Source of the DNA: Geosiphon pyriformis uo1
Lineage: Eukaryota; Fungi; Glomeromycota
Length of the DNA: 18,385 nt
Assembly (NCBI GenBank): GCA_016748015.1
Contig: JAAOMT010000676.1
Coordinates: 7,408-25,792, forward strand
Direction of reading: 5' to 3'
Shown here: in pieces, positions 1,905-18,385 of the stretch
Numbering within the stretch: the first letter of the stretch is position 1
Layout: every line of letters begins with the position of its first letter
Program-made: the position numbers and the translations under genes
The notes under the pieces: model-generated
What the model was told of the DNA's origin: nothing
Seen by the model: the letters and a program-made list of their open reading frames with translations, nothing else
Databases searched by the model: none

Positions 1905-2073
1905 GAGATTCCTCAATTCCTCAATTTTTGACACCAGGAATCTTGAAATTTCTGGAATCTTGCAATTCCTTTTGAGAAAAATTTTGGAATTTTGGAATTC
2001 TGCGATTCCTTGTACAAGAATCCTGAAATTTCTGGAATTCTGCAATTTTTCTTAAAAAGAATCTTGGAATTCC
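1905..2073. repeat. Degenerate array of GGAATTCC-like 8-9-mers with an 80-bp higher-order duplication
   Basis: Many GGAAT(T/C) and AATTCC variants. CAGGAATCTTGAAATTTCTGGAATCTTGCAATT (1935-1967) recurs as CAAGAATCCTGAAATTTCTGGAATTCTGCAATT (2015-2047). Confidence 0.75.
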
Positions 2074-3594
2074 ATATTTACTACAGCTACCTCTAATTGG
2101 CTAATTTATGTGTTAATATACTTCTTATATTTTTATGAGTAACATTCTTTTATAGTTTTTAATATGTTAAATAGTAGTATTTAAATCTGTTAAAGTATGT
2201 AGATAAACTTTTTTGATTAATTTATTCTTTAAATTAATAATAGTTTAATCCAAATTTTAAAAATTAGAGTAATAAGTATTTGTTTTAAGCTAATAAATTC
2301 TTTTAAAAAATTTATTAAACTTTTTAATATAAGTTATAATAGATTCTAATAGTTTTTATTTGATGTTTTAAAAGTAGTTTTAAAAAATAATTAAAGTATT
2401 ATTGTTTATAAACTATTTAAAAAAAGCAGTTTTAAAAGTTGACTATTCTGCAAAAAAAGCAGCCAAGTTTTTGAATTATTTGCCAAAATATTTTTAAAAA
2501 AATAAAAAATTGCTCTTAATATTCTTATTATATTTTATTTATTTGTGTTTTTTGCTTTAGTAACTTAGTCAAGCCACTCTTAAAAACTGATTTTAATGTT
2601 TTTTTTAGAGAATTTAAAAATTTTTGCAATATAAATAGTCATTTTTTTATTTTTATTATTGTCTATAGTTTTTTTTTTTTTGTTTTTTTTTTCAATAGAT
2701 TCAGAAATGTCTTTTTTGTAAGCTAATATTTTTAAATATTTACTTTGGTTTTCTGCTAAATAATTAGGAAGATTAGTATTAGTTTAAAATTAGTTCTAAC
2801 TATTAGATTAAATTTTTGATAAAGTTTTCTGGTCTTAAAAATTAGTTAAAAAATGAATTAAATATTTGTACTTAAGTAAACAAAGTCGAGAAAAATGTAA
2901 TTAAAAATAGTAATTTAAAATTGGTTTTTTATTTAAGTGTTTATAAATATTAAAAGATTTGTTTTTAATGTATTAAAAATTGTGTAAACTAGTTAAGTGT
3001 TTTTTTTTGTTTTTGTTAATTTTAGATTCAAATTTAAGTTTAAGAACAAATTTTAAATCAACAAAATATTTTTTTTTATAAAACTTAATAATATTATAAT
3101 TAAGTTTTTTAAAATAAATAGTGTAAATATCAATACTAATAACTTTTGAATCTTTGTTTAAATAATAAATTAAGTTTTTAAGAAATTTTTTTTTAATTTT
3201 TATAATATTATTGTTTCCAAAAAAATAATTATTAATTTAATTTTCAATATATTAAAAAAATTTTTTTTAAAAGCTGTAATTTTATTTTGGTTTTTAAATT
3301 ATTGTTTATAGTAAATATAAATTAATTAATAATACTTTAAAGTTATTATATCTGATATAATTACTACTTTAATTTAATTGTTGCTGTATTATTTTTTAGA
3401 AAACATCAAATATTACTGAAAATTTTTCTACTTTTTTCTAAATATTGTTAATATTATTTTGCTGGTAATTTTGTTATTAATAAAACTTAATAAATTTTCA
3501 ATAAATTAATTTTTTTTTCAAAGTATTTTTTTATATTTTAAACTATTTATGCTGTTAGACTTATAAAAAAATAACCAATTTTATATTAATTATT

Positions 3595-3770
3595 TGTATA
3601 ATTACTTTACAGTAAAAATTAATTTTTTAACAAAAAAATCTTATCTGTAAATTTTTTAAAATATGTATAATTACTTTGTTGTAAAAGTTAACTCTTTTAT
3701 AAAAAATCCTAACTATAAACTACTTAATAATATAAAAAAAAATAAATTAAAAAAAATAAAAATAAAAAAA
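3595..3770 (+). repeat. Putative 3' end of a non-LTR retroelement: duplicated ~49-bp 3'UTR motif followed by an A-rich tail
   Basis: TGTATAATTACTTT occurs exactly at 3595 and 3664 (69-bp period) and similarity continues ~35 bp further. A-rich tail at ~3734-3770. Confidence 0.5.
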
Positions 3771-3910
3771 TATATCAAAAAAGTTATTTTAGATTCAAAT
3801 TTAGAAGTTTTTAATAATTACTATAATTAATAATTAATCAATATAAAATAATTAATTTTAAAACAAAAATATTTAAGAAAAAATCAAAAACTTTTTGTTT
3901 TCTTAATTTT

Positions 3911-4992
3911 ATGATTATAACCAAAGCAAAAAGTAAAAAAGCTGTAAATATTACTTTTTCTATAGTAACTAATAAAATTTCAACATAAAAAAGTCTTTTT
4001 GTTATTAAAACAGCTAAACATAATGTTTTGGTTACATTTTTTTAAAAAAATATTAATGAAAAGCTGTTTTTAGTAACTATTAAAACATTTTTTTCATTTT
4101 TAACTGGTTTTTTACTAGTTAAAGTTTTTTTAAAGAGATATACTTAAATTAATTCTAGTGTTGTTTTTATTTTCTTTAAGAGCCCAAAAATTTTTAATAA
4201 TAAACCAGTTAATAAGCTGGTCTTTTTTTTTATAGTTTTTACATTTAATGTTATTAGTACTATTTTTTTTAATAAAATAGTCAAAAAGACTAAAGATTCA
4301 AAAAAGTGAAAACAATTATTCATTTCTGCTATTGTTACACAAACTTCTTTGTGATTTTTAATAAGATCTTAAATAAGATCTTTGTTGTATTAATTAGTTT
4401 ATCATTCAAAATAAGCCAAAATTAATCATTAATTATGTTGTTAAATATAAAGTCTTTAGTAAATTTTTACCAGTTTTGAAAAAAAACAACAGTTTTCTAT
4501 TAAGTTACTTGTTCTTGAAAACTGGACTGATCAAATAGAAACTGAATTATTATTATTTTTTCTGGTTTTTGGTGTTATTATTAATGGTGCTTGAGAAACT
4601 ATTACTAGTTATCAAAGATTTACTAAGTAAATAATTTTTACTCTAATATTTAATACTATTTTTAAGATTAAATTGGCTCATATTAAGGCTGTTTTTTAGT
4701 TTATACATGGTTTTTTGAATATAAAATTTGTTTTTAAAGACAATATAAAGTTTTTTTATATAGAATTTGCTTTCCAAAGTTTTTAAATACTAGGTTTTTA
4801 ATTAAGTTTACAAGTTCTGTTTGTTTGGCCACTCTTAAAATTACCAAGTTTTTGGTGGTTTTTGAATTTGGTTTTTTTTTTGCTGTTGTTGCATTGTATA
4901 ATGTATTATTAAGTATGTTTACTACTAATATTAAGATAACTCTTAGTGTTTTTGGTATTGTTTTTTATGTTATGTTGAAGTTTGTTGATTTT
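3911..4992 (+). pseudogene. Decayed ORF1-like region of a LINE-type non-LTR retrotransposon, 3'-truncated
   Basis: ATG at 3911 (MIITKAKSKKAVNITFSIVTNKIST*...), then readable patches: KSPKIFNNKPVNKLVF, VLENWTDQIETE, FKIKLAHIKAVF*FIHGFL, LATLKITKFLVVFEFG, IKITLSVFGIV. The LINE ORF1 assignment rests on recalled similarity to Glomeromycotina repeat proteins and is unverified. Confidence 0.5.
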
Positions 4993-5374
4993 GATAATAT
5001 ATAATTGTTTACTTTAAAAAATTATATACTGCTGTATTTGTTCTCAATTACTGGTTAATTTTAGTGAACAAAAATAATATTTGGATTCTTTTTTTTATGA
5101 ATTAAAAAGAGATAATTTTGTTTCAAAATAAGTTTAAAACCAAGTTGGTCAATTTTTTTTTGGCTGTATTGTTTTTGAGATTAATAATATAATCTTTTAA
5201 GTTGATAGCTAAATGTGTTTTATTTTTTGTTTTCCAAATTTTGGTTATTATTCCCAATTTGCTCTAATTATATTTAAATCTTAAATTGACTTAAACTTTA
5301 CAGTTGTCAAAACTAATGTACTGAAAAAATAACATATTTGAAGAGAAACTTCTGGTTGTTGGTATTGTTTTAGA

Positions 5375-5907
5375 TGTTGTTATAAATAAACTTGATAGTA
5401 TATAGTGATAACATTTGGTGCTTAAAATTTGGGTTTTTGGGGAGTTTTTGATGGTTTTTTTTCAGTAAACTTGTTTAGTGTATTAGTATTATTAGTCTCT
5501 GAAGGTTTTTTTAATTAATATGAATTTACTTATAAAGTTTTTTGGTTATAAGACACAAAGAAATATTTTGTGGTGTTGTAACTTCTTGTATGTGAATGTA
5601 AATTATTTTCTCTGAGCTAACAAGCAGTCATTAGGGTTTGATAGTATTTTTTTACTCTTCTGATAAGCTACCAAGATAATGTTAATATCTAATCTTAAGA
5701 GAAGCTTTCTTTTTTTACTAGACTATTACAAAGTTTATTTTCAAACAGTCAATTTTTTTATGTTGCCACTTTACAAAAGAGAATAAAAAAAAATAAAAAA
5801 AAATAAAAAAATAAAAAAAATTAAAATAAGAAATAAGAAATAAATATTCTGTTAATAGCCATAATTAAAAACTATTGTGTCAACAAGTTAAGTAGTAGAT
5901 AATAACA
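5375..5907 (-). mobile_element. Solo LTR (533 bp) with 4-bp target-site duplication TAGA
   Basis: Bounded by TGTTGTTAT...ATAATAACA (8/9 inverted match), with TAGA at 5371-5374 and 5908-5911. Shares TTGGTGCTTA, TCTGAAGGTTTT, CTGATAAGCTA, an A-rich tract and AATA.CCAT.AT.AA.A.CTATTGT with the 1277-1761 LTR. Confidence 0.8.
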
Positions 5908-6008
5908 TAGATTTGAAAAATTGAAGAGATATTTTATTGATATAATTTCATTTTGGTTGATAGCAACTATTCTTGAAGAGAAAAATATTTAATAATTATG
6001 ACTTGCAA

Positions 6009-6053
6009 GTCTAATTAACTCTGAGAGTCTAATTAACTCCTAAGAATCTAATT
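6009..6053. repeat. Short tandem repeat, 18-19-bp unit GTCTAATTAACTC(T/CT)(G/A)AGA x2.4
   Basis: Directly visible: gtctaattaactctgaga / gtctaattaactcctaaga / atctaatt. Confidence 0.7.
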
Positions 6054-8230
6054 TTTTTTCTTTCTAATTTCTATAATTATTCATTTTTATACATTTTTTT
6101 GTTCTACAGAATTGCTTTTTAATTGTTTTGTTTTTGCTAACTATTATTTTACTATTTCTGTTATAACTTTGTTCTTCTACATTATTACTAGTTATCTTAT
6201 GTTTCAATTAGTTATTTTGTGCTATAATATATTATCGAGTTTTGTATTATGTTATTCTGAATTATTACACATATTCTGTGTATTTTCACATTATTTTGTG
6301 TTATTTTATGTCATCATGTTTTTGGTCACATTTTCTCTATAACTTTAGATTGGTTTTTCTATTCAGATAACAATATTAAAAAATAAATTATCTAACTATG
6401 GACTGTAAAATTCTTTTGTCTTTCTCTTCTAAGGCTCTCAAAGTATTTAAACCATATTTTATAAGTAATATTTCTTATATTAAAGCTTCTGCTTTTTCAG
6501 ATTTTTCTGAGTTTTTTTTTAGTGGTTTTTATTTTTTTTTTGTAATTGTTAATGATTTTTTGATTTTTTTTTAGCTGATATCTTTGAAATTCAATTTGGT
6601 TAAATTGTTAATTCTGATTAGGTCTATTATTAAGCCTGTTAATGCATTAGTTATAATGTTTGAATATTTTATTAAAGATAATTTTATATTAAACAGTGTT
6701 TTTAGTCTTAAGATTAATAAACTTATGATTTATTTGAGTTTTTTTTAGCAAGTTTATTAGTAAGTTGAGAAAAAAAATAGTTTCTTTAAAAAAAAAGTGC
6801 TGCATATAAGATATTAATATGTTTAATAATTCAGAACATTTAATTAACATAAATAATAATATATTTTCTAATTTGATTTCTTTTTAGAAATATAAATCTG
6901 TTAGGATTAAAACTAATCTCTTAAAAACAGCCAAATAATTAGTTGAATTTATTTTTTGTAGTGTTATTTTGTTTAATATTATTCAAAAAATGTTGTCTTT
7001 AGATAAATTTTCTTTTATTGTATTAATATAGTATAGTCTAAACTGGTTTAAGTAGTTAATTACATGTAAAAAACATATAAACTATATTTAATACTAGAAT
7101 TTTTAATTTGTTTTTAATTTCTAAACAGTAGTTGGGCTTTGTTTATTAAATTTTAATAAAAAAATATTTAAGAATTTTTATGTTTTTAGGATAAGTTTTT
7201 ATTGAAATTAATTTATAGAAAAGATATTTAATAAAAATTAATTTTAACTAAGATATATTTTTTTTAAAAAAAGTTCTTCTTTTATACAATTTATTATAGT
7301 ACTATTTTATAATCTAACACTTTTTTTTTCTTAATATTTTGGTAAATTAAAAATATATTTCATTAAATTACAAATTATTTCTGTAAATTATAAATTATTT
7401 TGGTAAACTGTTAAATAATAATTATAATAATTTAATTGATAATTTGAAATAATAATATAATATTAATTAATAATAAATATTATAAAAATAATTTTATATT
7501 AATTAATATCTTAAATTTCAACTGATAATACTAATTAACTTAGTAATTTAATTAATTTATAAGTTGTTTTATAATTATTTTGTCAGTTAATTTACTAATA
7601 AGTATTAGTTTAATATTTATTTATTCTGTTTTGGTATTAGTATATATTATTATTATTAGTTTATTCTAATTAAAACAGTTTTACTAAAAAAATTAAAGAT
7701 ATTTAAATTTTTTTTATTAAATAAAAAAATAGTAGCAAGTATTTTATTTTTAGTAATTATAGTTAAAAAAATCATATTAGAAGTAATTTGGTTGTTGTTA
7801 AGAGAAAAAAAATTGGTAGATTTAATTATAGCTTTTTTTTCAAAAGTATAATATTAAAATTCTGAGTTTTGTAAAAACCAAGATAAACAGCTTGGTTAAA
7901 ATATCTATTTAATAGTACTTAAAATAGTAAATTACTGTAATTTATACTCATAATAATATAAATATAAATTAAAATTGATTTTTTTTGTTTTTTTTTTTTT
8001 TTTATTATAATTGATAATTTAAGATCTTAAATTAATAAATACTAAGACAAAGACTACATTATTATTTAAGAATATTAATAATAATTTTGTAATAATTAAG
8101 ATAAATATTAGAGTTGTTAATACTAAGAAAATAAATATTAATATCTTATTAATTATATATATTTTGATTGTACTTAATATTAATTTTCTTAATATTAATT
8201 AAATATTTTTTTTAGCAATTTCTAATAATA

Positions 8231-8270
8231 TGTTCTAATTTTTAACAATATATTCTAATTTTTAACAATA
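8231..8270. repeat. 20-bp tandem duplication
   Basis: tgttctaatttttaacaata / tattctaatttttaacaata. Confidence 0.7.
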
Positions 8271-8528
8271 GTAATAGTTATGAAGATTTTGTTTTATAAT
8301 TCTTTTTATTTTTAATAATAATATTATTATTAATACTATAGACTGCTGTTATTTTTTTAGTATTGTAAAAACTAATATGTTTTTAAATTTTTAATAAAAA
8401 ATTCTTAGTTAATTTTTTACTTAATTAAATAAGCTTTATATTAATATTAAAAATTTTATTTATAATCAAATTAACAATTTGGGTATGATTAACTTTTTGT
8501 TTAACCAATTTAAAATTATAAATAAGTA

Positions 8529-8581
8529 TTAGGGTTAGGATCAAGATTAGGGTTAAGATCAGATATAGAGGGTTGGGTTAG
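8529..8581 (+). repeat. Degenerate interstitial telomeric repeat tract (TTAGGG)n
   Basis: In-phase hexamers TTAGGG TTAGGA TCAAGA TTAGGG TTAAGA TCAGAT ATAGAG, then GG TTGGG TTAG. Deviations are mostly G>A, matching the local mutation bias. Confidence 0.75.
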
Positions 8582-11345
8582 CATCATAAAACAAAACTAA
8601 TCATGTGCTAGAATCTGTGACAATGGCCAATGAGATAAAAATCACATGGCTAGACCAAGGATAAAATAATTTAACCAGCTGTCACCAAGTCAAGCCAAAT
8701 CATGCAAACCAATTGGAATCCAACACCAGTGAACACTGAAAAGTAGGTTCAGCCAGTTTTTGGCGATTAAAGTCCTTCTGGCTCTATTAACAATATTGAA
8801 AACACTACTACCACAGATAACTATAGCTACTAAGGAGTTGGCATGATCCGAAAATGAAGGAGAAATGACATTATGAATGACTTTACATATAAGAGGCCTT
8901 TTTGGTAAATTAGGAATCTTAACAATAATACTAAAAAAATCTCTTTTTCCATGAAAACCAAGAAGTCAAGGCCTCTTAACCCAAGTATTTTTGTTAAGTT
9001 GAAAGTTAACCACAGACAAAGGATAGCCTCTAGTCAGCAACCAAGCTTTAAATTCCTTAATATGAACTCAGTAACTGGAAAAATCCAAATTATTTCGAAT
9101 ATGATAAATATTTTCACTCTGAATCCAGTTCATAACATATTTTCTAGGATAAAAAGTCTGAAGATCAGTATATATATGAAGATTACATGGTTTGTCATAA
9201 GATTGGACCAAAAATTTAGTAAGATTATCAGACCAGAAAACCGAAATATTCAAATCTAAAAATATAATATTATAGTCATTATTATTAGTGCATTCCAAAA
9301 TAAACATAGAAGGAACAGCAAAAGACTGGTAATACTATACCCAGGCATTAATATCAAATTTATGAGGTTCATAAATAACGATAATATCATCTAAATAATA
9401 ACGAACAATAGTGGACCCAAAAGTATTAACCATAGTCATAACAATTTTGTGTTCAATAGAAGCACAGAATAAATTCACAATAACGGGAGCAGCTGAAGTA
9501 CCTATTGTCAGTTCTTTGTGCTAGTAATAGAATGAATCTTCATAAAGAACAAAGCTATTCTCAAGAATAAGCATCATAAGTTTAACTTCAAAGGTCAACC
9601 AAAGATTCTCAAAATTTGAGTGATCAGATAAAAAAAATTTCAGCCAAGCCCAAATGCATTGATAAAATGTACGAATTTCAATATTGGTATACATATTTTT
9701 AATGTCAAATGTAGTAACAGTAACATAGCCATGATAATAATTCGAAATAAGTTTAACAAAACTCATAGAATTATTGAAGACTGTTGGACTTTTTTAATGT
9801 AAGATTGCCAATATTTGGCTAACTAATGTGAAGCAGTAGACATAATCCAAAAATGATTAAGAGTAATGGAATGAAGAACACAAGGGTTTTTGTGTAATTT
9901 CCATAATCTATAAATTTCAAGAAAACGTAATTCAGAATTATGTAAAGAAAAAAATATTTTTCACAAGTATTTATGAGTATTTTTATGTTCCCTTAAGTCA
10001 GTGCTCATATAAAAATCAAATATATGATTCAAGAGCAATTTAGAACAGTGCAAAACATCAGACACATCACAAAGCTTAAAAACTGAAGTGTCAAAAAGTA
10101 GCTTAAGCATTTTAGTGTTATAATGAGAATAATTACAAATAGTGAGATTCATGTTTTTATTTGATAGAACAACAATCAAGTCATGATTTATTAAAAATAA
10201 TAAAACATTATTAACACATTCAGAGATATTAAAAATACTATTTCTATGATCCTTAAGTACATTGAAATTATTTAAAATGTAGTCAGATGCAAAGAGTAAA
10301 TGCTGATTGAAAATTAAGAGGCTTTCTCTTTTCCTTTCAAAGATTTTACTATAGGCTTTGAGGATTTGTTTTCTGATGTCTGACCACGTTTAATAGGTTT
10401 TAACAAGAAAGGGTTTTGAAGTAAGTTGAAAGTTCGAATCTAACTTCAAGAAATTTATAACAAAAAAGAGAATAATCACAAAAGAAATATTGTGAACCAA
10501 TACCTTCATTGATTTTTTGGCTTTGAGTGGTTGTTTAACTGTTGTTTTTGAGGCCTTTTTTTTCCCTTTTAATCACCTTGTTTTGCATTTTTCACTTTTT
10601 TGTTTGGGAGATTTTTCTTGGCTGGAGATGGGTGAACTTTACATTTTGGGGAAGGTTTTGATACTGGAATCTACAGAAACAATCTTATTAGAAAAATATT
10701 TTTTCAAAACAGGCTTGTGTAGAGTAGAACTAACCACAGTAGAACCAATGACCAAGTTTTTTAAAGCTTAATGAGTTTTAATGAATGTTTTAAACTCCTT
10801 AATTTCTTTATCAAAAATTCTCAGTAAACTACTCTTAGCTTTATCAGAAACCAAGTTATCAGTATGAACTTTACTGATTAAATTGGCAACATCCAAACAA
10901 ACTTTTGAGGGAGACTTATTAATGAGAGCATTATACTTGGCAATTTTTGCCAATAGCAGATTTTCACAAGAATGCTTTAAAGCCACACAAACTTCACCAA
11001 ACGTATTATCAATTATAAGTAAGTCATCAGAAAGAAATTGAGAAAGATCATAAAGAGAAGTAGGTAAAAAAAATTTTGGGTCACAGTTTGAATTAGCAAT
11101 AATTTTACATTTCAGATCATCTATCTTATGAAATAGAAAAAGAACATAATTTTTTTGCTTTAAAATTTAAGGAAATGACATATTATTAAGATTGGAAGAA
11201 CCAATCTTGAGTGCAAGCTAGTTAGCAAGCTTTTGAACAGCAACGAATTTCCTAATGTTCATTAGGGGGATGTCAATGTCTATGTTGTTAGAAGAAATAG
11301 TAGATTGAGAAGTAGATTAAGACATGTTTGATAAAAGGTTAGGGT
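8582..11345 (-). mobile_element. Endonuclease-deficient Penelope-like retroelement (Coprina/Athena-type architecture), decayed
   Basis: Penelope-type RT frame with no GIY-YIG domain, a short 3' UTR, and a 3' end abutting telomeric repeats. The 5' boundary is approximate (11345-11450). Confidence 0.8.
8690..11325 (-). pseudogene. Penelope-like reverse transcriptase with long N-terminal extension (~870 codons, many stops, one frameshift near 9785)
   Basis: ATG 11325 is in frame with listed ORFs 10768-10986 and 9961-10179. After one frameshift the frame runs through ORFs 9521-9766 and 9068-9307. Motifs in order: VHNIS..FLKLDSNF; LIVVLSNKNMNL (cf. PADK); EIYRLWKLHKNP; FDIKNMYTNI (A); IGTSAAPVIVNLF (B); YYLDDII (C, ~9386-9397); FLDLNI (E); YDKPCNLHIY; RGYP. 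The C-terminal end is approximate. Confidence 0.88.
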
Positions 11346-11499
11346 TTTTGGAAACAAGTATAAGATAAAAGTGCTCAAGTAAAGCAAATGGTTGTCTGCA
11401 CAGAAAATTATTTTTAAAGAGTGTTAATCTAAGTTCGAAAGTCGATGCACTACAACCACTCTACAAGTAATGCTTATATACTTGCAATCAAACATGAAA

Positions 11500-14400
11500 A
11501 TGGGCAATTATGGCAAATCTGTTATGGATTTTCTAACTATGTTATTGTAAGAACTCTTTTCACAAACCTCATTACTGAATTTTGAAATGGTAATATTAGT
11601 AGTAATAAGTATTGAATCAAAAAGATCCTGAATTTCATCAATTACCTTTGACTTATATGATGAAAGAACTGGAGCTATAGGACAATATTCAGAATTATCT
11701 AACTTCCTAGCTATTACTTCTTGATTATTAAAGCCAGCTTCACAATATAGGTTGCAATCAATCCAATATGTTTTTTTCTATACTTGATGTCTTTTAGAAC
11801 CTACACAAATTGTACTACTCTTAATAGTATAACCACACCAACTACTCATTACTGCATTAATAAATTTTATTGTAGTATTGAGATTGGGCAATCTTTTAGC
11901 TCTGGTCTTAAAACCAAAGAGTAACAATACATCTTCTCAAATTTTAACAATTTTTTCCCATGATTGCTCGAAAGTCTTAGCCATATCATTACCAGAAAGA
12001 ATATTTATATCATCTATATCTCTAAAACCTATTGATTGGACAAGATTATGTACTGCTTCTTATTGTTTTGCTGAATAAAATTTATGCAAATTGACTGAAG
12101 ATGGATCCATAGATTCATGTGAATTTTTTCATTGCATTTTTTCTTTGATTTTTAGATTTTCTATAGCTTTTGTTGCATTGAAACCTTGTCTTCTAAAATA
12201 TGCCAGCTTTCTAAAATGTTGTAAAAATTCAGAATTATTGAATTTTTTTACAAAATCTATATTACAAAGCTTAATCCAATTATCATTATTTATACTCCAG
12301 TTTTGAATATCATCTTTGCCACCAATATTACCTAAAGCATATGTTCTCCATAAATAATAACATTGTAAAGTCATGTTATCAGCAAAAAAACATATAAGAT
12401 TTTGCTTAAAAATTTCAGCTTTATTGAGACTAATATCTGAAGCATTTGCTATTGATTCTGTATCCAAGCTTTTATATTTTTCTTAATATTCTTAATAGTA
12501 TGAGAAATTTCATTTTTGTTAACTTTTTCAGTATCTTCTGCCAAAATTAATTCAAGAGTTGTTCCAGTACTAGCAATAAGACTACAAAGAATCTCAGAAA
12601 AATATTTGGCCAATAAGCGTCTTTCATATTCGACCTTAATATAAGTCTATGGCTGGAGATAAATCAAGTATATAACAGTCATTAATTTTATTCCATTTAC
12701 AATGTTCTTTTATAACAGTTGACAAGTCCCCAGGTCTCAGAACAAAAAGTTCAGCATGAATGAGATCACAATTCAGTTCTTTGAAAATGCCAGTTTTTTT
12801 ATTATTATAGAGAGAAATAATATGATATGGACAATTGCAAACTCAATAAAACATTTGTGCAAAAGCTTTAGCATATACTCTTGTATTAATATTACTTATT
12901 TCTATAACTGCATCAAAATGATTGGAAATTTCAAAAAAGATGCCAGCTTCTACAATACTTGTATAAACCACACAATCAAGACTACTCCAAGTAGTATTAA
13001 TATCGGCAAAGTCATCTTGCCATTGCTTTCCATCCATTTGGCCAAAATAAATTCATGATAAAATGTGTGAGCCATCTGGTTTTTGTAATTTAGAAGCTTA
13101 GTTTGCCAAAGCTTGTGCTTTTTTGCATGAGATCATTAAAAAAGCAACTCATTTACCTTTCTGAAGCATCTTAAGACTCCTATGTATAGCTTCTGATTCT
13201 TTATTTAAATCATAAAGAATTTTAATAGTCTCATCTTTACATGGCTTATATTTGTTATATCTCCATCTCGATATTGTTTTAAAAAGTTTAAAGTCAATTT
13301 GTTTGCAATTGTATCCATAGAAATAACATGAACAGCTGATTTTAATAAATTCCACATAGCATTTTCAAATTTATGTGCATGAACTCTACTAGACATTTGA
13401 TGTATAATAGTATTATTTTTGTCTAAGATAACTACATAAAAATGCCTTCCATAGAAATTAAGATAATGGGTACTTTCAACTTGGACAATAATAACGTATA
13501 GCTAAATTACCCTTATTTTCCTGATAATGGCATATATAAAGTTCTGAATTTTGCAATATTTCAACTCTAGCTTTAGTCTTATTGTTAAAAGTTTTACGAT
13601 ATGAAATCCAATTAAAACAAGGCAAATTTGCTCTATTTTTGGCTAAAAAATCAAGAATTTCTCTTAGTGTTTTTGTTTTGTTACTAGCAACAAATGAGCA
13701 AATAAGAGTTGTAGTGAGATTCTCACTTAAGAAATCAGGGTAAGCTTTTGGTGCATCTTTCATTTTCTTTACATTAATGATTTTTTCAGATAATTCAACA
13801 AGTGGGCGTGGGTGTTTTACAGCATTGAGTAATCTTTTAATTAATCCCCACTTAGGCTTTTCTTTTGACTCAACTTTGTTGGATACTTTATTGAAACTAA
13901 GGCCCTTGTAATCTGGTTTGTATTGTTTTTGGCAATAACACTTAAGTATAAAATACCCATTTTTTCGAATAAATCCATAGAGTTGATTCTTATCATATTT
14001 AATATCACATATAGGGCATTCTTTAACAGATTGTGCTTCAAAGTTGATGAACCCCTTCTCAGTTCTTCCAATTTGGAGCCACCTATATTTTGCAATAACT
14101 AAATTGGCTTCCTCAACCAAGATATTTTCATCATTGATAGGTTGAGATTCTTGTTTTACTGGCTTCTCTGGAAAAAAGATTCATGGCCAGATTTCAGAAT
14201 AATTCTCTTTAGGTTGAACTAAATAATCCTCCAGCTTTTGAAATCCATTTTAGACTGAAGAGATTGTGAGTCTTTTAATTCTACTTTCTTTTGCCAATCC
14301 AAGTAACCAAAGATTGAAATGTTTTTTGGGAAGACCAATATCAATGAACTTTGAATAAGATTTCCCAACTAATTTAATAACTTTTTCTGTAAAACCCTTA

Positions 14401-15011
14401 AGTTTTCTATAATCCACAAATTGGGCCTGAAGATAAATAATATGCCAACTACATTTATTGGCATTCGATGAACTTGCTAATGCAAAAGAATTTAAGAAAG
14501 GTATACAGTCTGGTATAAGGCTTAATGTATCTGCATAAGTGACTAAAATTCGAGACATTAAATCCTCATGAGTAATTTTTTCACTATCTAGAAAAGAAAG
14601 TTTAGAATCAGAGGGATTAGGCTTTTGTCTTGCATCAATATCAATTATTAAATGAAGAGGCTGATTTCTATCAATACATTTATGAGTGTTAGGCATTCCA
14701 TAAACTTTGGTAGGATGATCAATCACTGTATAACCTTTTCCTGCCATCCGAATTATATATTGAGAATAAATCTCTTCTGATCAATATGCCTCTAAAAGTG
14801 CCGTATTGTTTCTATTAGCAGAGCTGGCACGACCATTTGATGCAAGCCAATATTTATAATATGTATGTCCTCTATGGCTAGGTTTATAATCAAGATCAGT
14901 TAAACTCGTGAGAAGCTTTTTTGCTTTATTATATTCAGCCAATTTTTGATTTAGGCACTGTTGTTGTAACGATTCACATAGATGTTTTTTTGCCTCACTA
15001 GACAAATTCAT
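11500..15011 (-). pseudogene. AEP (PrimPol-like) primase + Zn finger + herpes UL9-like SF2 origin-binding helicase fusion, ~1150 codons, disrupted
   Basis: ORFs 14781-15011, 14250-14747 and 13476-14120 share one frame, separated only by point stops. AEP motifs: LIIDID, KCSWHII, FIDIGL..HFNLWL. Zn finger: CPIC..(Y/H)...LKCYC. Helicase: SFVASNKTK (decayed Walker A), ISYRKTF (Ia), IVQVESTH, VVILDK (Walker B, E>K), MDTIAN (III), VVYTSIVEAGIFFE..HFD (V), AQMFY* (VI). A readable C-terminal region continues to ~11500, and the 3' end is approximate. Confidence 0.85.
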
Positions 15012-15196
15012 TTTATTGATTTGTATATGCGTGTTGTTTGATCTGACAAAAAGTATATATAATAATATTTTGTAACTATAATAACTAGTAGATAAATCTT
15101 TAAAATAAAAATTAATTATTCTCTATTCTTTTTCGGAATGCACTTTGCCAAGAAAAAATATAAATTTGATTCACAAGATTATTATATACAATTACG

Positions 15197-15481
15197 ATGG
15201 TATTTTATCATTGCCCATATATCCATAGAACTGGAAAAATCTGTGGTCAAAGTAGTTATAGATCAGAAGAATGCTATGTTCATTGGAAATCTCCAGTACG
15301 TACTCCTTGTAGAGATTGTGATAAGCTAAATAGTTCTATACATAATGCATGCTATAAACATGTAGGCAAATATCAAAGTAGAGAGAATTATCGCAGAAAA
15401 AAGTGGGATGAATTACATGCAAAAATTGTTATGCTTGAGAATCATATACCTGACTTACCCAATTCTAGACATGAAGTATAA
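15197..15481 (+). CDS. Small Cys/His-rich protein with two CCCH-type Zn-finger-like motifs and a basic helical tail (94 aa)
   Basis: C-x9-C-x9-C-x2-H (CPYIHRTGKIC...CYVH) and C-x2-C-x10-C-x2-H (CRDC...CYKH). The ORF is intact. Confidence 0.7.
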   Translation: MVFYHCPYIHRTGKICGQSSYRSEECYVHWKSPVRTPCRDCDKLNSSIHNACYKHVGKYQSRENYRRKKWDELHAKIVMLENHIPDLPNSRHEV

Positions 15482-15489
15482 TCATATAC

Positions 15490-15660
15490 TTAGCATATAT
15501 CAATAATTTTTTGGATGACCTCTTTGAGTAAAGCTATATCCTCTTTGATCTTATTGATATTTTCAGCAATCTTATTACATAGAGCTATGGATTCTATAAT
15601 CTTATTTTGAGAAAAATGATATTTTGTGCCTGATTGATCTCGTGTCTTACTCATATCCAT
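15490..15660 (-). CDS. 56-aa predicted coiled-coil microprotein (not in the supplied ORF track)
   Basis: MDMSKTRDQSGTKYHFSQNKIIESIALCNKIAENINKIKEDIALLKEVIQKIIDIC*. Heptad I/L periodicity. It ends 8 bp from the stop of the convergent Zn-finger ORF. Confidence 0.5.
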   Translation of the reverse strand: MDMSKTRDQSGTKYHFSQNKIIESIALCNKIAENINKIKEDIALLKEVIQKIIDIC

Positions 15661-15800
15661 TTTCCGATAGAATTACATTAACCACAACCCATTCAATTTT
15701 TGGGTATAGATATACCGACTCACAAATAATTAATTTTCGATTTGAAAGAATAAGTAGGTTAATGTATAATCACAATTTACTTATCTAATATATTATCAAT

Positions 15801-16995
15801 ATGACCATGATAACTGCCCAAAAAACCCGAAACCCCAAAACTAATAGCTTTACCTCCATTTTGGATCAGATCCTAAATAAATATAACCTATTAACTGAAT
15901 CAAACCCACTTCAATTACATGCTCATGCCAATAAGCTTGGTACTATGCTACCAGATTGGAAGGCTCATAAAGATGTGAAAGAGGCTCTCCATCGGCGCCT
16001 ATTCAAAGAAAATCAAATAGAAGCTCTTGTACCAGACAAAAGGGGGAAAAAGCTTACTGTCAAGAAAAGAGCTCAATATTGTGCAAAAACTGGAGATGTA
16101 TCAGATATTTGGTTACATGTCTTAAACTTAGCTGTCCCAAAAAATAATACAGATAAGGCGATTGTGGCAGCCAGTTCCTGTCTTTTGCAATTTTGTAAAG
16201 AATTAGCAGAAGCTGGAGTTGATCCCGAGCAAATTAATACATATGCCAAATTACCAGATATTACTCGAGCTTCTAATCAGTCGACCTAAAATGCCTAAAC
16301 ACTTCTCCTTAGAAGAAGAGCTTAAAAGACTTCAGAATATCCATACCACTGAGATCCTCACTCTACAAAATCTTGCAGATGTAATCATGATGTTGAGCAT
16401 GAGACTTGCTGAAGCAACTACTCTTCGTATTATCTATTATGAGCCTGACAAATCAAATCCTCTGGAATGGTATAATCCCGATTACTTTTGGTATTGTACT
16501 GGGTATATTAAAAATAAAGAAGAAGCAAAAAACAATTCTGAGCCTCGACCATTTCTATCCATGGAAAAGAATCCAAAGCGTGCAAAAGAATTGCTTACCT
16601 GGATTCAAAATACAATAGCGATTGGAAAGTTGCGTGATCCTGTCTATAGTATTAATGGAAAACGTAGTACAGGTATATTTAGTAAATTTTTAAAGCCATA
16701 TGGCATTACAACTAAAAGATTAAGAAAAATCGGAGGTAAACATGCTTCTAGAGTTCATGGTGGTCAAAATCCAACTTCACAACATCTCACTTTCCTCAGC
16801 AGGATTGCAATAAGGCATAGGATGGATCGTCATAATCCTGGAATGTATTATGCCGAGGGTGATACTTCCAATTCTGATCTTGACTCAGATCTAGAGCCTG
16901 AACCCGAAACTCAAGCTTTTATAACTAAACCAATTGATAAAAAGACTTCTACATCTGAAATTAAGGATATCTATGACTTATATGGGAATATCTAG
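15801..16995 (+). pseudogene. Tyrosine-recombinase-fold protein, telomere resolvase/protelomerase-like, split by one frameshift near 16280
   Basis: ORF 15801-16289 (helical N-terminus) overlaps ORF 16219-16995. Candidate catalytic residues: R in MRLAE (16402), K in TGYIKNK (16510), KxxR in KRLRKIG (16714-16725), H in AIRH (16816), Y in GMYY (16846-16851). Acidic tail. Confidence 0.7.
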
Positions 16996-17181
16996 ATTAG
17001 TGATATAATTAATTATTAATTGTCAGATGCGATATGTTTACTAACCACGCTTTTTTGCTTTCACCACATTCACAGTAAAATCTTTATTATCATTGCCGGA
17101 GGTAATCACTTTGTAGCTAAACAATTCAGAGTTAGACCCAGACCCAGATGAAGACAAGGATGAAGATGCAACATCATTTAA

Positions 17182-17544
17182 AAATCTCTTTTTTCTTTTA
17201 GCCTTAGATGGTATGGAGACAATAACAAGCCCACAGGGGACTTTTCGAGTCATAACACCAGCCCCACTAAAAATGACCCATCTAGGTCTGATTTATCAAT
17301 AGAGGAGATCACGAATACAATTAAGAAAATTCTTTCAGATGTTGAAGATAAGTCGGGTTCTTCTGATTCTTGCTTACAGCAAAATAAAAGCAAGAAAAAT
17401 AAGGTCAAGTATTTCATCATAGAATCGGAATCAGATACTAACTCTGATAATTCTGAATCAAGCACTTCTTCATCTACTTCGGGATCAGAAGATACACATG
17501 TATATAAGAGTGTGCAATGTCGCAAAGTAAAAAAGAAAAATTAA
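17182..17544 (+). other. Stop-free Ser/Asp/Lys-rich low-complexity frame without an ATG (gene fragment or terminal exon)
   Basis: Reads ...RWYGDNNKPTGDFSSHNTSPTKNDPSRSDLSIEEITNTIKKILSDVEDK...ESESDTNSDNSESSTSSSTSGSEDTHVYKSVQCRKVKKKN*. A pyrimidine tract plus AG at ~17185-17201 could be a splice acceptor. Confidence 0.4.
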
Positions 17545-17810
17545 TTATAACCACATCGTAACCGCGAAACCACATCACGTTATAATGGGCCGATGTCATG
17601 TGTTTTAAATCCGCGAATCAGAGATCAGCATAGAAGTTCATGGAACATGCCAATAAAAAACCCTTGATGGGTCATAATCTATATATTTATTGCTGAGCAA
17701 TGACTCGAAGAGTCTACACGAAAATCTTTATTTAACCAGTGATTATCTGATATATTTACATTTTAAAACCGCTAACTCTATATAATTATTTTTGCTATAT
17801 AAGTATCGAA

Positions 17811-17869: not shown

Positions 17870-17971
17870 CTGTAAAGAGTAACGATTATAAATAGCGATT
17901 TTTTAGCAATACATATAATACAATAAAAGGATTAATACGAACGTATTAGCCCATGTGAAATAATTACTTAC

Positions 17972-18385
17972 CAATATTTCCTCGTCTTTTATCGCAAGAT
18001 CTTTCTGGTATCTTGGTTTGACTTTTTTTCGGTTGGGAGAGTGTGATTCGGTTATTCAGATCTCGTACATCATTGAGATCTTGTTGAGAAATCATAGAAA
18101 CAAGCGTCCCACGTGCGTCCCTCTCGACCCCATCCTTGAGATCGTTGTAAACCGAGGAAAAGTCACGCAAATTATGAAAGAACGAAGCATGAACGAAATA
18201 CACTATGCTATGCCGAATTCCTTTCGTTACGGGAAAATTGCCGTGGAGTAGGAGACGTGAAGAAAATGCTACAATCTGGCCTAGCCTTAGCGGAATTACG
18301 ATCTGAAGTTGTGGAAAACAAAGTTCGCCCCCCTCGAAATCGCCCAATGCGACCAAGCAACATAAACTATTCGGCTCGTCGTGCT
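17972..18385 (-). CDS. TET/JBP-like 2OG-Fe(II) dioxygenase, penultimate exon (5' part lies beyond the window)
   Basis: The frame is open to the window edge: HDEPNSLCCLVALGDFEGGELCFPQLQIVIPLRLGQIVAFSSRLLLHGNFPVTKGIRHSIVYFVH. It shows GG.L, the distal His and the RxSxVxF 2OG-binding motif of the DSBH fold. The HxD motif is expected just outside the window. Ends at donor G|GTAAGT (17972/17971). Confidence 0.75.

Follow-up and report, generated by a model that had tools for sequence, protein, structure and literature searches.

The window analysed here, an 18,385-nucleotide stretch of a Geosiphon pyriformis uo1 contig (JAAOMT010000676.1, positions 7,408 to 25,792 of the forward strand), carries a dead copy of a multi-copy genetic element of glomeromycete fungi in which a UL9-type helicase gene is paired with a gene for an enzyme of predicted protelomerase fold. 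Because a virus-type DNA-copying enzyme is combined with a predicted hairpin-sealing fold, the element is likely to be a self-copying linear DNA, and the interpretation favoured here, to which about even weight is given, is that its active form would be an extrachromosomal linear replicon with hairpin ends. The giant-virus gene pool is the likely source of its parts, and no earlier description of the element is apparent.

Linkage and extent of the helicase-enzyme family

Six-frame translation of the window yielded a long minus-strand gene (15011 to ~11502), a plus-strand gene (15807-16995) and two small open reading frames (ORFs) between them. The four genes placed here by a preliminary description of this DNA were all recovered in this way and by tblastn with intact relatives, but the proposed extent did not hold, since a remnant of a further family gene, F5, lies beyond 16995 at 17044-17211 and the family as a whole goes beyond four genes and is more modular than proposed. 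The helicase gene aligned to intact relatives in five pieces (tblastn), at 41-65% identity to residues 1-1117 of P0124 and at 61-73% to P0136, and the enzyme gene matched P0004 at 84% and 87% identity in two frames. The former is interrupted by 11 premature stops and four frameshifts (near 13496, 13256, 12646 and 12467) and the latter is thrown out of frame where, compared with locus L001, 35 bp have been deleted (16276/16277), in agreement with the earlier view that this copy is dead. The glutamate-to-lysine change previously noted in Walker B was also present (ILDK in the window, ILDE in relatives), and Walker A is altered as well (ASNKT, compared with ASGKT in P0125).

Database searches recovered 127 enzyme relatives among 846 candidates and 15 helicase relatives among 6709, and an enzyme profile search gave 552 clusters at 50% identity. 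Eighty metagenome loci carrying enzyme relatives (L001 etc.), mostly of 1-3 kb, were kept from the 127. The helicase was present in 9 of these 80, in 9 of the 23 with at least 600 bp and in 8 of the 10 with at least 1 kb upstream of the enzyme. Linkage spans enzyme clades that are 31-55% identical and includes a helicase with only 27% identity (L046). In G. rosea the helicase and enzyme records are consecutive (RIB11429, RIB11430), and two gene models, P0127 and P0182, run both genes together as one. At least one element gene was found upstream of the enzyme in 22 of 23 loci, with families defined from the same loci and self-hits removed. It is near certain that the family is real and linked, and the co-occurrence on which the preliminary description depended was borne out; the expectation of a conserved orientation was not, as eight of the nine helicase-bearing loci are tandem and only one (L029) is divergent like the window. 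In the longest locus, L046 (12.8 kb), the order is helicase, finger, two-cysteine-adaptor ORF, microprotein, enzyme, F5, protease-like, RING and host-like genes, and across the 80 loci what follows the enzyme differs in gene number and arrangement (21 loci have F1, 14 an F-box gene, 11 F5 and 6 the protease).

The enzyme is under purifying selection: dN/dS was at most 0.32 in 18 of 20 pairs with dS of 0.03-1.2, the other two (0.60 and 0.82) having dS below 0.05. By a strict test 16 of 47 full-length enzyme matches were intact. All organism-named rows among the matches listed are glomeromycetes (11 genera, with Funneliformis found elsewhere), including P0007 from G. pyriformis, which matches 73% of the query at 99% identity. 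Eight of the 254 family proteins examined (P0202, P0204, P0223, P0249, P0251, P0255, P0262 and P0263, on contigs of up to 22 kb) are GC-rich, unlike the fungal ones, and their hosts are probably not glomeromycetes; since these homologues keep the catalytic positions, the family extends beyond these fungi. A third homologue search recovered only 3 of 8 of its own query members. Word-based scans found no relative in IMG/VR or in GTDB genomes and tblastn of phages with a GC-rich enzyme homologue was empty, absences that carry little weight because such scans need short exact words.

Predicted fold of the enzyme and nature of the helicase

The model of P0004, an intact relative of the window enzyme, has a predicted local distance difference test score (pLDDT) of 77 and a predicted template modelling score (pTM) of 0.52. 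In a Foldseek search with this model ranks 1-5 were taken by TelA (E 3e-4 to 3e-3), closely followed by Cre and lambda Int, and the top viral-model match was the telomere resolvase of EhV-86 (E 3e-3). VIA re-alignment, which covered 991 chains from the Foldseek hits and was not a wide search, gave Z of at least 8 for eight chains, all of them TelA, TelK or ResT (Z 8.7-10.5), the best value for other recombinase- or integrase-type folds being 6.7. The ResT catalytic domain superposed on the model with a root-mean-square deviation of 3.8 over 132 residues. A profile alignment with 12 phage protelomerases over 189 columns, weak at E 0.018 (reversed-profile control 0.76), superposed the family R, K and KxxR on the GRR, FSGQAK and KDSR motifs of N15, with the family H and Y lying beyond the aligned stretch. 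These residues are kept in most of the 27 family rows (R 27, K 26, R 27, H 23 and Y 25), the His of the integrase HxxR motif is present in none, and no Pfam match to DUF3504 or DUF3435, the Crypton and Starship recombinase families, was obtained for 33 members. Taken together, the modelled structure very probably has a protelomerase fold, which is consistent with the protelomerase-like label first given to this gene. The preliminary description had offered either a hairpin-ended element or a transposon integrating by a tyrosine recombinase, and because the predicted fold is closer to protelomerases than to integrases the hairpin-ended option is favoured, with middling confidence.

One window piece of the helicase gene matched Pfam Herpes_ori_bp with E 3.7e-7, and the intact relative P0124 with E 6e-23. 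P0124 also matched herpes simplex virus (HSV) UL9 structures (E 4e-14) and CyRepA1 (E 2e-39, below the family cut-off), and its sole phage match among 50,697 records was RepA of VP882 (E 8e-5), which is encoded approximately 1 kb from the VP882 protelomerase. The best structural matches of the P0124 model are giant-virus origin-binding primase-helicases, the top four rows being nameless; mean pLDDT is 54 and falls below 50 over residues 1-307, the primase part, so that the N-terminus is unreliable. These data point to a UL9-type helicase with a likely primase domain. The UL9 half of the earlier assignment was thereby sustained and the archaeo-eukaryotic primase (AEP) half less strongly so, its evidence being the presence of DxD and SWH motifs and a profile match, at only E 0.006, to the D5 primase domain of poxviruses.

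Known systems, ends of the element and competing interpretations

The linear phage-plasmids N15, PY54 and VP882 likewise place a replication helicase of the UL9/CyRepA1 clade beside a protelomerase. The fungal element differs from them in its fungal host, AEP-type primase, identity of ~22% and many chromosomal copies, as well as in having no virion or partition genes seen, and whereas telRL of N15 lies 165 bp upstream of the protelomerase gene the fungal element has no telRL just upstream. The gene content is thus N15-like, yet membership of the N15 type fails on host, tel position and virion genes. The telomere resolvases of EsV-1, Ectocarpus endogenous viral elements (EVEs) and EhV-86 are eukaryotic enzymes of protelomerase fold with integrated copies (PMC13236599, available part), but these phaeoviruses and the coccolithovirus are giant viruses with capsid, polymerase and separate integrase genes, which were not seen in the fungal element. 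AEP-UL9 primase-helicases of marseilleviruses, Clandestinovirus, Bodo saltans virus and African swine fever virus have the same domain order and gave the best structural matches, whereas the fungal gene heads a small element and so far has not been found within a giant genome. Transpovirons, as well as Polinton-like viruses (PLVs), are small and modular and carry helicase-primase and zinc-finger genes, and a satellite life style like theirs would be plausible for the fungal element. They differ in having superfamily (SF) 1 or 3 helicases or a protein-primed DNA polymerase B, with capsid genes or terminal inverted repeats, and a term search of the available parts of PLV papers, including bioRxiv 2026.06.19.733378, found no mention of UL9 or protelomerase. 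Cryptons, including Glomhoppers, and Starships are also fungal, multi-copy and equipped with enzymes of the tyrosine-phosphotransferase superfamily, but their DUF3504 and DUF3435 are not matched by the fungal enzyme and the HxxR His is absent; the element is not a Crypton or Starship. In the available part of the Glomhopper paper (PMC13465315) a term search found no mention of helicase, primase or protelomerase.

In a hairpin-ended replicon of this kind origin opening and priming would fall to the primase-helicase and synthesis to host polymerases, none of the element's own having been seen. Replication through the hairpins would yield a dimer; cleavage of this dimer at a palindrome by the enzyme, and resealing, would restore the hairpins. 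Chromosomal copies may arise by accidental capture, through end fusion or host repair, and ResT is able to perform telomere resolution in reverse. Once integrated, copies would degenerate through C-to-T changes and the insertion of retroelements. It may be that the element depends on a giant virus.

Candidate resolution sites were sought as inverted repeats. In the window and the 80 loci 8 were found in 178 kb, compared with 2 and 2 in shuffled sequence, none of them shared and none in the window. A scan for tight-loop palindromes was at chance level (11 observed, 10 and 15 in shuffles), and inverted repeats at L040 and L021 were set aside as low-complexity and locus-specific. Twin 55-bp inverted repeats with TTATATATAA centres lie 82 bp apart at L046:93-235 (z -6.6 and -3.9) and precede the start of the helicase gene by 160-300 bp. 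No other locus of tandem layout extends upstream of a helicase start, and no twin repeat of this type is present in the divergent promoter of the window. These repeats could be a resolution site or an origin, and twin palindromes are also seen at VP882-type loci. Among the phage loci a contig, L086, carries a perfect fold-back of more than 430 bp around its tel site (739-1600), that is, an assembled hairpin end. A 36-bp stretch downstream of the enzyme is 97% identical between the window (17616-17650) and L078 (825-860), whose enzymes are distant, and is possibly an end motif or an unrelated short repeat.

Several observations weigh against a hairpin-ended linear replicon. The same scan that found a palindrome just upstream of the protelomerase gene in 11 of 11 phage control loci found no conserved palindrome next to the fungal gene, either in the window or in the 80 loci, and the twin repeats of L046 are confined to that one locus and would suit an origin of the herpes oriS kind just as well. 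In the contigs of one sample neither a strand-switch joint nor a free form turned up, and the ends of the element were not seen, the left end in the window having been destroyed by a retroelement and the right being undefined. How a pure linear plasmid would enter chromosomes is not evident, although copies are numerous. In Foldseek the lead over Cre is narrow and the model has pTM 0.52, none of 33 enzyme members matched a resolvase or integrase family in Pfam, and the PDB, PHROGs and NCBIfam sequence libraries gave no relevant enzyme match. Some of the 80 loci are near-duplicates and their fungal origin is deduced from similarity.

The many chromosomal copies across genera, the variable cargo-like genes downstream (F-box, RING and protease), the failure to find a resolution palindrome beside the gene and the closeness of Cre and Int in Foldseek would all suit an enzyme that keeps a protelomerase fold but works as an integrase or excisionase, in a replicative transposon with a circular intermediate and Crypton- or Starship-like movement and cargo. 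The clear gap in Z in favour of protelomerases, the loss of the HxxR His from every row, the lack of a Crypton or Starship Pfam family in 33 members and the lack of detectable flanking repeats in the window argue otherwise, and such a function is rather improbable. Adjacency by chance of two independent repeat families, or of domesticated host genes, would explain why orientation and neighbours differ between copies and why most helicase and enzyme records have no placement relative to each other; against the helicase in 8 of 10 informative loci spanning divergent enzyme clades, the small genes and spacers common to the copies, and the low fraction of intact enzymes, it is scarcely credible.

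A larger integrated virus, giant-virus- or Polinton-like, might instead contain the cassette as its replication and resolution module, with capsid and integrase genes beyond the short contigs. This would account for the giant-virus-type helicase and the two-cysteine adaptor, and the eight GC-rich enzyme homologues could be read the same way. Phaeovirus EVEs encode a resolvase, a separate tyrosine recombinase and an internal telRL-like site (PMC13236599, available part), and Polinton-related ATPases occur in Glomus and Rhizophagus, with PLVs often carrying Tet genes (bioRxiv 2026.06.19.733378, available part). However, as the preliminary description had said of the cassette, no capsid, packaging ATPase or polymerase gene was recognised in the window, in L046 (12 ORFs, Pfam only) or in the ORF families shared by the 80 loci, contigs being short and Pfam insensitive to divergent capsids. 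The family scans of IMG/VR were empty, a weak point as they are word-based, and the giant EVE described from R. irregularis is without an SFII helicase, the available text mentioning no recombinase (PMC10640383). A larger virus is on this evidence, from loci of at most 12.8 kb, rather unlikely. The hairpin-ended replicon is retained as the best explanation. A wider proposal, held tentatively and at somewhat less than even weight, is that a class of linear, hairpin-ended replicons lacking capsids exists in arbuscular mycorrhizal fungi, as eukaryotic equivalents of the N15-type phage-plasmids assembled from giant-virus parts. Such replicons would exchange gene modules at shared promoter motifs, spread copies and cargo genes (for F-box, RING and protease proteins) into chromosomes and have relatives in other, GC-rich hosts.

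Protelomerases are known from bacteria and phages and from a small number of giant viruses of algae. If true, a small element of fungi with such an enzyme at its core would be a new kind of eukaryotic mobile DNA, a novelty that would shrink if capsid genes turn up. As had been supposed, no description of a fungal element with this architecture was found in the literature searched, which did not include subscription journals or Repbase, and supplements or Repbase may hold unannotated consensus entries; there is no mention of one in the available parts of PMC10640383, PMC5294986, PMC13465315, PMC13236599, PMC11296320, PMC11075540, PMC13533422 and bioRxiv 2026.06.19.733378 and 2026.10.13.758929. 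Approximately two-thirds of R. irregularis repeats are unclassified (PMC11075540, available part), and the helicase-enzyme family would put a name to some of these. Direct tests are feasible with existing long reads, in which fold-back reads and free linear DNA can be sought. The element may also offer fungi that resist transformation a replicon of their own, and be a source of a divergent enzyme that forms hairpins.

Layout of the window, small genes and flanking DNA

Table 1. Features of the window, with positions counted from its first nucleotide
Feature	Position	Strand	Remarks
AEP-type primase / zinc finger / UL9-type SF2 helicase pseudogene	11502..15011	-	11 stops, 4 frameshifts, Walker A and B altered, C-terminal tail lost
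Divergent intergenic region, AT-rich and conserved in L001 and L029	15012..15196	.	two-way promoter presumed
94-codon Cys/His (CCCH-like) finger ORF, open	15197..15481	+	label from motif only, no Pfam match
Predicted coiled-coil microprotein, ~60 codons, one premature stop	15466..15660	-	
Conserved upstream motif, TAATTAATTTTCGATTTGAAA type	15733..15760	+	candidate promoter or exchange point
Protelomerase-fold enzyme pseudogene (fold predicted)	15807..16995	+	catalytic R, K, K-x-x-R, H and Y kept; 35-bp deletion 16276/16277
3' remnant of conserved downstream family gene F5	17044..17211	-	another same-sample copy runs on past 17212
Probable C-terminal remnant of aspartic-protease-like gene of L045/L046	17212..17544	+	weak: 76% over 51 nt
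Decayed reverse-transcriptase element, flank, probably outside the element	8530..11490	-	abuts helicase tail
TET/JBP-like dioxygenase fragment, flank	17964..18385	-	Pfam E 2e-5, below cut-off

The small genes lying between helicase and enzyme recur in other copies. Relatives of the finger ORF, which is intact in the window and has no Pfam match, were found in 20 of the 80 loci, relatives of the microprotein in 8 and the two-cysteine-adaptor ORF in 10. The TAATTAATTTTCGATTTGAAA-type motif upstream of the enzyme is common to copies whose enzymes are only 31-38% alike. Two upstream motif types were distinguished in 44 scored loci, the window included, each occurring with several enzyme clades, and the motif label requires at least two changes on a 13-row tree. 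The window shares 72-77% identity in its flanking DNA with L029 and L045, whose enzymes are 38% and 31% identical to P0004. Similar flanks and motif types across divergent enzymes point to gene replacement between element lineages. A TTTATTTTTTCG-type motif lies ~45-70 bp upstream of start codons in many loci (e.g. L057, L036 and L017), before enzyme, F1, F-box and F19 genes, and changes in gene order appear to break there; the motif may serve as a promoter or as a hotspot of exchange. The giant-virus early-promoter motif AAAATTGA precedes the microprotein but not most genes and was rejected as a general feature.

The commonest substitutions in the window enzyme gene relative to the intact L001 copy are G-to-A and C-to-T (121 of 272). 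In contigs of one sample containing the window stretch, window A/T positions are mostly G or C in other copies and the break at 13256 is absent from at least one of them. The ratio of observed to expected CpG is 0.09-0.28 at 10001-15000 and climbs to ~0.5 within the enzyme gene and to 1.0-1.3 past position 17000, and positions 2000-8500 are decayed repeat DNA that is extremely AT-rich (GC 0.12-0.22) and nearly CpG-free.

The helicase tail is cut at ~11495 by the decayed minus-strand retroelement (8530-11490; RVT_1 E 4e-6). TTAGGG-like repeats lie near both of its ends, at 8530-8575 and 11340, and its motifs are reminiscent of telomere-associated Penelope-like elements. One same-sample contig covers 11369-11884 and shows 40 differences, and in another 9261 is joined to 15048, a pattern suggesting that the retroelement has inserted a second time into the helicase-enzyme family.

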